A DNA stretch of 32,000 nt, taken from assembly GCF_000017845.1 (NCBI RefSeq), contig NC_010546.1, positions 1,890,001-1,922,000 of the forward strand, in the 5' to 3' direction. The stretch comes from Crocosphaera subtropica ATCC 51142. Its GTDB lineage: Bacteria; Cyanobacteriota; Cyanobacteriia; Cyanobacteriales; Microcystaceae. Shown piece by piece: positions 18,501 to 18,880 of the stretch (positions are counted from its first letter, which is position 1; the number at the start of each line of letters is the position of its first letter). The notes under the pieces are model-generated. The model had not been told where the DNA came from. It did not search any database and saw nothing but the letters and a program-made list of their open reading frames with translations. The position numbers and the translations under genes were made by a program.

Positions 18501-18880
18501 TCGGTACTGGGAAGGGCTAAAATTTTAGGAAGGAGGGGAATGAGGACAATAGCGGTATAAATGGAACTAATGGCGGTGATGGCTTTAATGATGCCAGAAA
18601 CCCAATAATCAGGATGCCACAGGGTCCAGATAGCCATCAGATGAGTGGTTCCACAGGAAACAATAAACATCCCAAATAACAGAAAAACCCAATTATAGGG
18701 GAAATTGTGCCGTTTTTGCACAAAATAAACCAGGGTTAGGGGAATAGAATAATAAGCGAGGGCAATCATCCCGTCAGAAACCAGATGCAGTCCCACTAAT
18801 GGGGTTTGCCACAGATAACAATAACCATGAGGCATTAACCCCAAGACAAGATAGGAAAAGAGGGGAGTTAAAAGAGTCAT
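15542..18880 (-). CDS. Sensor histidine kinase: ETR1-like ethylene-binding-type membrane domain, six PAS domains, and a HisKA_2/HWE-type kinase core
   Basis: The N-terminus [53 protein letters not shown] matches the ETR1 ethylene-binding domain. There are six PAS-like repeats. The H-box is [20 protein letters not shown] (HisKA_2). The HATPase N-box is [11 protein letters not shown], and G-boxes are VKDNGKGLP and LGLQLV. Confidence 0.9.
   Translation of the reverse strand: [1112 protein letters not shown]

Follow-up and report, generated by a model that had tools for sequence, protein, structure and literature searches.

The locus examined here raises the question of whether a cyanobacterial histidine kinase could sense ethylene through the same kind of membrane domain as the plant receptor ETR1, and what such a kinase would control. 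The kinase gene lies in a 32,000-nucleotide stretch of the Crocosphaera subtropica ATCC 51142 genome (contig NC_010546.1, positions 1,890,001 to 1,922,000), hereafter called the window; all coordinates are counted from the first nucleotide of the window. The gene is a complete open reading frame (ORF) of 1112 codons at 15542..18880 on the minus strand, to which the coordinates of its domains given below also refer. Its 1112-aa product was found to be 100% identical to ACB51228.1/WP_009545689.1 (UniProt B1X0D9) of C. subtropica ATCC 51142, which is encoded on the 4.93-Mb chromosome and carries the database title "two-component sensor histidine kinase". An earlier inspection of the letters, termed here the sequence-only reading, had likened its N-terminal membrane sensor domain (residues 1-125, 18506..18880; a short N-terminal extension and three transmembrane (TM) helices) to ETR1's ethylene-binding domain. 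In cyanobacteria, ethylene-binding domains have been on record since 1999, and they are regarded as ancestral to the plant ethylene receptors; the remark in that reading that some cyanobacteria possess them concerns something already well known.

The N-terminal domain compared with Arabidopsis ETR1

We compared the kinase with Pfam-A and with ETR1 of Arabidopsis thaliana. The family ETR1_N (PF25487, "Ethylene receptor 1-like, N-terminal domain") matched residues 28-123 (18512..18799), the ethylene-binding domain proper, with 143.4 bits and E 2.6e-42 (gathering score 27 bits), and the match covered profile positions 2-97 of 97. The ETR1 reference sequence (738 aa) was verified as exact by sequence look-up (UniRef100_P49333/NP_176808.3); the ETR1 segment that the sequence-only reading had quoted corresponds to residues 22-75 of P49333. 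BLASTP aligned the kinase N-terminus with ETR1 residues 23-119 at 44% identity and 67% positives over 97 residues (E 3e-25). The match proposed by eye was thus borne out by both the full-length Pfam match and BLASTP. The accompanying claim of an alignment without gaps held over ETR1 residues 23-82 (TM1-TM2), but a single 3-residue gap was needed ahead of TM3. Pfam already labels ACB51228.1 with ETR1_N, and the sequence observation is what current domain databases report.

Wang et al. 2006 reportedly placed Tyr32, Ile35, Pro36 and Ile62 among the residues needed for binding in AtETR1. Cys65 and His69 have been implicated in coordination of the Cu(I) cofactor; roles in both binding and output are described for Asp25 and Lys91, whose polar bridge couples the two (PMC10266040). 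The papers on these receptors cite "seven residues" as required for binding without naming them. ETR1 D25, Y32, I35, P36, I62, C65 and H69 corresponded to kinase D36, Y43, I46, P47, I73, C76 and H80 at a constant offset of 11, and Lys91 corresponded to Lys99 beyond the 3-residue gap. BLASTP, hmmalign and MAFFT put these eight residue pairs in the same columns, and the spacing D-x6-Y-x2-I-P-x25-I-x2-C-x3-H is common to ETR1 (from D25) and the kinase (from D36). The equivalents of Asp25, Tyr32, Ile35/Pro36 and Cys65/His69 listed in the sequence-only reading were all confirmed, the Cys and His falling on the Cys65/His69 columns by each of the three methods; Ile62 and Lys91, which it had not listed, were also present.

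Alignments to ETR1 located the TM1 segment with Asp36, Tyr43, Ile46 and Pro47 at 18740..18775 and the TM2 segment I-V-S-C-G-T-T-H with Ile73, Cys76 and His80 at 18641..18664, and BLASTP and MAFFT located Lys99 in TM3 at 18584..18586. The kinase carries the Cu(I)-ligand pattern C-x3-H in TM2 (Cys76, His80) as well as the counterpart of the TM1/TM3 pair Asp25/Lys91 (Asp36, Lys99). At the Asp25 column it has Asp and not the Asn variant which, in some cyanobacteria, was found by Azhar et al. to give fast release and a 100-fold lower affinity (PMC10266040). Judged by its sequence, the kinase N-terminus is a genuine, intact ETR1-type copper-dependent ethylene-binding domain. The likeness could in principle be a chance or compositional similarity of hydrophobic helices, for which nothing speaks beyond the general tendency of TM segments to align; this is ruled out by the Pfam match over the whole profile (E 2.6e-42), by the BLASTP match (E 3e-25) and by the identical spacing of the polar functional residues, and we give it practically no credence.

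Conservation was counted in a profile alignment of 79 full-length and 120 short cyanobacterial homologues (199). Among the full-length proteins, the columns of ETR1 Asp25, Tyr32, Ile35 and Pro36 held D in 78/79, Y in 77/79, I in 77/79 and P in 71/79; those of Ile62, Cys65, His69 and Lys91 held I in 77/79, C in 78/79, H in 79/79 and K in 78/79. Over all 199 homologues the eight functional columns were nearly invariant. The closest orthologue, from Cyanothece BG0011, was 83% identical to the kinase overall. Its ethylene-binding domain was among the best-kept segments (91% identity vs. 63-93% for the PAS and kinase domains), and all eight functional residues together with a PHGxC motif were intact in both proteins. 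Given this complete and strongly conserved set of functional residues, we rate ethylene binding by the protein as likely.

A true ETR1_N copper site could nevertheless have a physiological role other than ethylene sensing: it could bind another small molecule (other alkenes, carbon monoxide, isonitriles) or signal copper availability or redox state, and any binding of ethylene in vitro would be a side effect. What the conserved residues specify is a Cu(I) site and not the ligand that it prefers (PMC10266040), and the ecological role of ethylene for cyanobacteria has been called unanswered (PMC6682694). The family is also very large and is spread across many non-plant-associated phyla: an exhaustive HMMER search of 1.84 billion 50%-identity representatives returned 8,568 proteins at E <= 1e-3, of which 6,437 also passed E <= 1e-10. 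Every tested member with the seven residues (AtETR1, SynEtr1, AzoEtr1 and Geitlerinema cells), however, binds ethylene specifically and saturably, with phenotypes at nL/L levels (PMC6682694, PMC11819568), and photochemical ethylene does occur in seawater (references cited in PMC6682694). We regard a non-ethylene ligand as unlikely and keep ethylene as the preferred ligand of the copper site.

An AlphaFold2 model built on a 121-sequence alignment (mean predicted local distance difference test score, pLDDT, 89.9) placed helices at residues 26-56, 63-88 and 92-121 and, after these, the first part of a cytoplasmic helix (126-139). Hydropathy maxima at about 42, 75 and 105-120 agreed with the three helices, and three TM helices are predicted with confidence for this domain. 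The basic TM1-TM2 loop (QKRH) would fit, by the positive-inside rule, an N-out, C-in topology like that of ETR1. The N-terminal extension of about 25 residues carries PHGYCYLWQ; conservation and MAFFT define in it a motif P-H-G-Y-C at residues 17-21 (18818..18832), predicted to be extracytoplasmic. Cys21 of this motif was kept in 75/79 full-length and 119/120 short homologues and fell on ETR1 Cys6 in the MAFFT alignment. Allen et al. described a single conserved Cys at the N-terminus of cyanobacterial receptors that may replace the plant disulfide pair (PMC6682694), and Cys21 is a candidate for a disulfide between the subunits. No PDB sequence matched the N-terminal 155 aa at E <= 10, and a Foldseek comparison of the AlphaFold model with the PDB returned only generic helical membrane proteins (best E 1.1).

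PAS array, kinase core and related architectures

The ethylene-binding domain is followed by six PAS domains at approximately residues 150-900 (16181..18433), detected as six stretches each by Pfam PAS_9 and PAS and as six stretches by TIGR00229; the array spans approximately 750 residues. GAF or phytochrome families were absent from the kinase at E <= 0.1 in Pfam and NCBIfam. A LOV/flavin reading of the PAS domains was considered and rejected: NCBIfam LOV-type models scored far under their cut-offs, and the NCRFL motif was absent. The HisKA_2/HWE dimerisation and phospho-acceptor domain occupies residues 916-991 (15908..16135), with the H-box HHRVKNN at 918-924, and scored 103.6 bits with Pfam HisKA_2 (cut-off 22.3) and 31.9 bits with HWE_HK (cut-off 22.8). 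The HATPase_c catalytic domain at residues 1020-1107 (15560..15823; 42.8 bits) has the N-box NELISNA, G1 box DNGKG and G2 box GLQL. With the H, N, G1 and G2 boxes all intact the kinase looks catalytically competent, and HisKA_2 and HATPase_c domains of this kind, fused to an ethylene-binding domain, make up the sensor half of a two-component system. The arrangement described in the sequence-only reading (six PAS domains and a HWE/HisKA_2 kinase, with no GAF or phytochrome domain) was upheld by Pfam and NCBIfam. PAS number varies within the orthologue group of the kinase: P0125 and P0126, which are 58-59% identical to it, lack exactly PAS2 through a 124-residue deletion (kinase residues 271-399).

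The same reading had called this architecture unlike the studied example. That holds for SynEtr1, but the oddity was overstated, as AzoEtr1 also lacks GAF and many of the nearest homologues are built alike. Architectures were counted in the 120 best 90%-identity clusters of a full-protein homologue search, using precomputed Pfam columns; a domain-only search with 135 aa returned only proteins shorter than 240 aa and was not used for these statistics. ETR1_N + PAS + HisKA_2 without GAF was the commonest architecture among the nearest homologues (49/120 clusters, including Nostoc, Leptolyngbya, Halomicronema, Mojavia, Drouetiella and Rippkaea). Approximately 25 further clusters had ETR1_N + PAS + HisKA + receiver, likewise without GAF (Microcoleus, Oscillatoria), and only 5 of the 120 combined ETR1_N with GAF. 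The GAF-less six-PAS architecture of the kinase is not unusual.

Arabidopsis ETR1 (P49333) shares with the kinase the three-TM N-terminal domain, the eight residues at identical spacing and the character of a histidine-kinase-type receptor. It differs in having GAF, a HisKA (PF00512) kinase and a fused receiver, in its location in the endoplasmic reticulum and in signaling through CTR1/EIN2, whereas the kinase described here combines six PAS domains with a HisKA_2/HWE kinase and lacks both GAF and a fused receiver. Its N-terminal extension is also approximately 15 residues longer, with one Cys (in PHGYC) instead of Cys4/Cys6. The kinase has neither the GAF domain that directly follows the ethylene-binding domain in plant-type receptors nor the cyanobacteriochrome-type bilin-binding GAF of SynEtr1/UirS; PAS domains come directly after the ethylene-binding domain.

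SynEtr1 (slr1212/UirS) of Synechocystis sp. PCC 6803, which was compared by its description, and GeiEtr1/GeiEtr2 of Geitlerinema PCC 7105 are likewise cyanobacterial ethylene-binding-domain histidine kinases; SynEtr1 and GeiEtr2 differ from the kinase in having PAS plus GAF. The N-terminus of GeiEtr2, including the extension, was 61% identical to the domain described here, a figure that serves as illustration only, the GeiEtr2 sequence having been taken from a paper supplement read by optical character recognition; GeiEtr1, whose letters were evidently garbled in that text, was left out of the comparison. SynEtr1 and the GeiEtr proteins respond to ethylene at nL/L levels, with effects on phototaxis and biofilm; SynEtr1 doubles as a photoreceptor, with a DNA-binding regulator and a small RNA as targets of its signal, and its residues 1-130, which have the same key residues, bind ethylene when expressed (PMC6682694). 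AzoEtr1 of Azospirillum brasilense shares more of the plan: an ethylene-binding domain followed by PAS and histidine kinase without GAF, all seven residues, and an adjacent response-regulator gene. Its 1-130 fragment binds 14C-ethylene, it regulates biofilm and exopolysaccharide (EPS), and the response-regulator gene is co-transcribed (PMC11819568). AzoEtr1 differs in being an alphaproteobacterial protein of 525 aa with one PAS domain and a partner called only a predicted response regulator (PMC11819568), compared with the six PAS domains, HisKA_2 kinase and REC-PAS-GGDEF-EAL partner found here. HisKA_2/HWE PAS kinases as a group share the H-box HHRVKNNL and multiple N-terminal PAS domains; many of those in the homologue list (e.g., P0127, P0130 and P0168) are without ETR1_N, which the kinase described here carries.

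Homologues of the ethylene-binding domain were also found outside the cyanobacteria. Domains at 48-57% identity occurred in Acidobacteriota (Bryobacter, Sulfotelmatobacter, Terriglobia), Sphingomonas/Allosphingosinicella, Methylobacterium, Methylomirabilota and Acidimicrobiia; these non-cyanobacterial loci are L059, L065, L066, L068, L072-L075, L078, L080 and L083-L088. The sphingomonad homologues are proteins of approximately 520 aa that combine the ethylene-binding domain with REC. The genome-contig scan for domain homologues used 4-kb flanks, which are too short to hold complete downstream genes of long kinases. Five proteins of approximately 138-165 aa (P0012, P0028, P0054, P0075 and P0108) consist of little beyond the ethylene-binding domain and are encoded on megabase or otherwise long contigs (Nostoc, Fischerella and others). 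Possible readings are that the domain occurs here as a protein on its own, or that these are truncated or pseudogenised kinases.

The downstream gene cce_1877 and the proposed c-di-GMP output

The gene directly downstream of the kinase, cce_1877 (ACB51227.1; 13368..15467, minus strand), encodes a REC-PAS-GGDEF-EAL response regulator according to Pfam. This provides the adjacent response regulator expected of a two-component system, 74 nucleotides from the kinase. The spacer between the kinase stop codon and the cce_1877 start codon (15468..15541, minus strand) contains no predicted terminator-like site; a promoter scan was not informative, giving 30 sites vs. 22.9 +/- 5.6 in shuffles. The REC domain has the acceptor Asp53 (in LILMDIRL), Thr81 and Lys103. 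GGDEF is intact with an RxxD I-site five residues upstream, the EAL, DDFGTG and EGIET motifs are present, and both enzymatic halves look competent from these motifs. A literature search, in which the published lists of putative receptors were not covered, found no mention of cce_1877 or cce_1878, and one on Cyanothece together with "ethylene receptor" found, within the same limit, nothing relevant.

Gene linkage was followed in 15 other distinct ETR1_N-PAS-HisKA_2 kinases (16 loci including the window). A REC-led gene was found near 14 of the 15 related kinases, as the next downstream gene at 12 loci and one gene further at 2; at the remaining alphaproteobacterial locus a partner gene was not detected. 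The partner was REC-PAS-GGDEF in 8/15 loci, with EAL as well in 7 of these (Cyanothece BG0011, Rippkaea PCC 8801, a Microcystaceae metagenome-assembled genome (MAG), Halomicronema, one ENA assembly, Lyngbya PCC 8106, an uncultured Lyngbya and L. aestuarii; the Rippkaea partner is REC-PAS-GGDEF). Four loci (Nostoc PCC 7107, Mojavia, Drouetiella and one metagenome contig) had REC-PAS-HisKA-HATPase directly downstream, and two more had it one position further. The REC-PAS module was 40-80% identical to that of cce_1877 over all 265 residues at each of the 11 loci measured, whatever the output domain, and the remaining flanking genes varied from locus to locus. Since the REC-PAS module is kept beside kinases with differing outputs and flanks, the two genes appear to form a co-inherited cognate pair with a swappable output, and cce_1877 is probably the cognate partner and output of the kinase. 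The conserved partner gene suggests that the kinase controls cyclic di-GMP (c-di-GMP). A further point in favor comes from three other loci (L045 and L051 from Elainellaceae MAGs, and L057), where single polypeptides of approximately 500-720 aa join the ethylene-binding domain directly to GGDEF-EAL or to GGDEF without EAL; judged by domain order, these fusions are a one-component link from ethylene-binding domain to c-di-GMP.

We propose that the protein is a sensor histidine kinase that works as a dimer in the inner membrane. Homology to AtETR1, SynEtr1 and AzoEtr1 suggests that Cys76 and His80 in TM2 hold Cu(I) and that Asp36 in TM1 orients or completes the site; ethylene, or a close alkene, would bind the copper. 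Following the model of PMC10266040, the Asp36-Lys99 bridge would pass the change to TM3 and move it. The signal would travel through the helical linker and the six-PAS array, which probably brings in further inputs, to the HisKA_2/HATPase core and alter autophosphorylation at the H-box. As suggested by gene linkage, the phosphoryl group would be passed to Asp53 of cce_1877, shifting the balance of c-di-GMP synthesis and hydrolysis and, in turn, surface, aggregation or biofilm-type behavior. Copper and ethylene binding, the phosphotransfer partner, the direction of regulation and the physiological output are all inferred in this scheme. The full pathway from ethylene-binding-domain kinase through cce_1877 to c-di-GMP seems probable to us. 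Ethylene-dependent biofilm and motility phenotypes are described for Synechocystis, Geitlerinema and Azospirillum (PMC6682694, PMC11819568), and Allen et al. noted that the GeiEtr2 gene is grouped with one whose product has a diguanylate-cyclase domain (PMC6682694); the phenotypes would be compatible with a c-di-GMP output.

Several observations weigh against this pathway. The six PAS domains separate the ethylene-binding domain from the kinase core, and the domain may be a minor input. In Halomicronema hongdechloris the homologue P0145 (L008 5001-7619) has Gly at the Cys65 column and keeps a REC-PAS-GGDEF-EAL partner. In Rippkaea orientalis PCC 8801 the ethylene-binding domain of P0124 (L001 6001-9282) is degenerate, with 46% identity vs. 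60-86% for PAS/kinase: it shows I46V, P47A, I73L and W85A and has no PHGxC, while Asp, Cys, His and Lys are retained and the kinase and its REC-PAS-GGDEF partner are kept. These changes suggest relaxed or altered ligand binding, or replacement of the N-terminal domain. With kinase and partner kept in both P0145 and P0124, neither canonical ethylene binding nor a canonical copper site is apparently needed for the module to persist. The partner output is a second kinase and not GGDEF-EAL in 6/15 loci, so c-di-GMP is not a universal output, and the spacing of kinase and cce_1877 is all that points to their co-transcription. The PDB searches brought up no solved structure of any ethylene-binding domain with which the model could be compared. 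Finally, where a marine unicellular diazotroph would meet ethylene is conjectural; photochemical alkene formation from dissolved organics in seawater (via references cited in PMC6682694) is a plausible source.

Some of these observations would also fit a kinase whose ethylene-binding domain now serves mainly as a membrane anchor and dimerisation module and no longer functions as an ethylene receptor, with the six PAS domains sensing redox, light or metabolites. That the PAS domains fill approximately 750 residues and vary in number among orthologues (P0125 and P0126 lack PAS2) can be read in this way, as can the retention of kinase and partner by P0145 (Cys to Gly) and by the degenerate P0124. 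An anchor role alone, however, would not hold polar Asp, Cys, His and Lys residues invariant in membrane helices across approximately 200 homologues. The eight residues and PHGxC are moreover intact here and in the closest orthologue, in which the domain is 91% identical vs. 63-93% for PAS/kinase. We consider a mere anchor very unlikely and retain the reading of the domain as a probable ethylene sensor.

The domain family, its occurrence in cyanobacteria and GAF-less bacterial receptors are already established. To our knowledge, the tested bacterial receptors are few (SynEtr1, GeiEtr1/2 in whole cells, and AzoEtr1), and none has been reported as a HisKA_2 kinase or with a c-di-GMP output. What is new is an uncharacterised intact member together with a conserved link to REC-PAS-GGDEF-EAL, a modest and testable extension. 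More tentatively, and with doubt outweighing confidence, we raise the possibility that the ETR1_N-PAS(n)-HisKA_2 kinases and their co-inherited REC-PAS-X partners form a distinct, so far undescribed branch of bacterial ethylene signaling, whose output in Crocosphaera, Cyanothece, Rippkaea, Lyngbya and Halomicronema would be c-di-GMP turnover. If this were true, a unicellular nitrogen fixer of the sea would take dissolved ethylene, a photochemical product of organic matter in sunlit seawater, as an environmental cue for its c-di-GMP level and thereby for aggregation or surface behavior. With its identifiable partner gene, and in a marine diazotroph that has been studied genetically, the kinase would connect an environmental gas to a second messenger in a directly testable way. 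Confirmation would widen the known outputs of bacterial ethylene sensing and could help to explain why aquatic bacteria not associated with plants retain high-affinity (Asp-type) sites.

Other features of the window

Two tandem heptamer repeats lie upstream of the kinase gene: CAGTGAT x6.9 in the intergenic stretch 18882-18935, with a 28-nucleotide superperiod at 96% match, and ACTCCTG x3.7 at 19063-19088. Both are similar to the short tandem heptanucleotide repeats of cyanobacteria. Further genes of the window encode a 1045-aa DUF3854/ResIII-like protein (727-3864), an acyltransferase (4001-4705), exosortase EpsH (4972-5811), tRNA isopentenyltransferase (6577-7482, minus strand) and a DUF2227 "metal-binding" membrane protein (21919-22461, minus strand), and no link of these genes to the kinase was evident.

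Further along, a tRNA-Val gene (22585-22656, plus strand) is followed by genes for a 1021-aa DUF3987 protein (22801-25866, minus strand) and a phage-integrase-family protein (27681-28835, minus strand); three small ORFs between these two genes gave no Pfam match. MutS2 is encoded at 29070-31523. The region 22585-28835 looks like a small integrated mobile element at the tRNA gene, next to MutS2.

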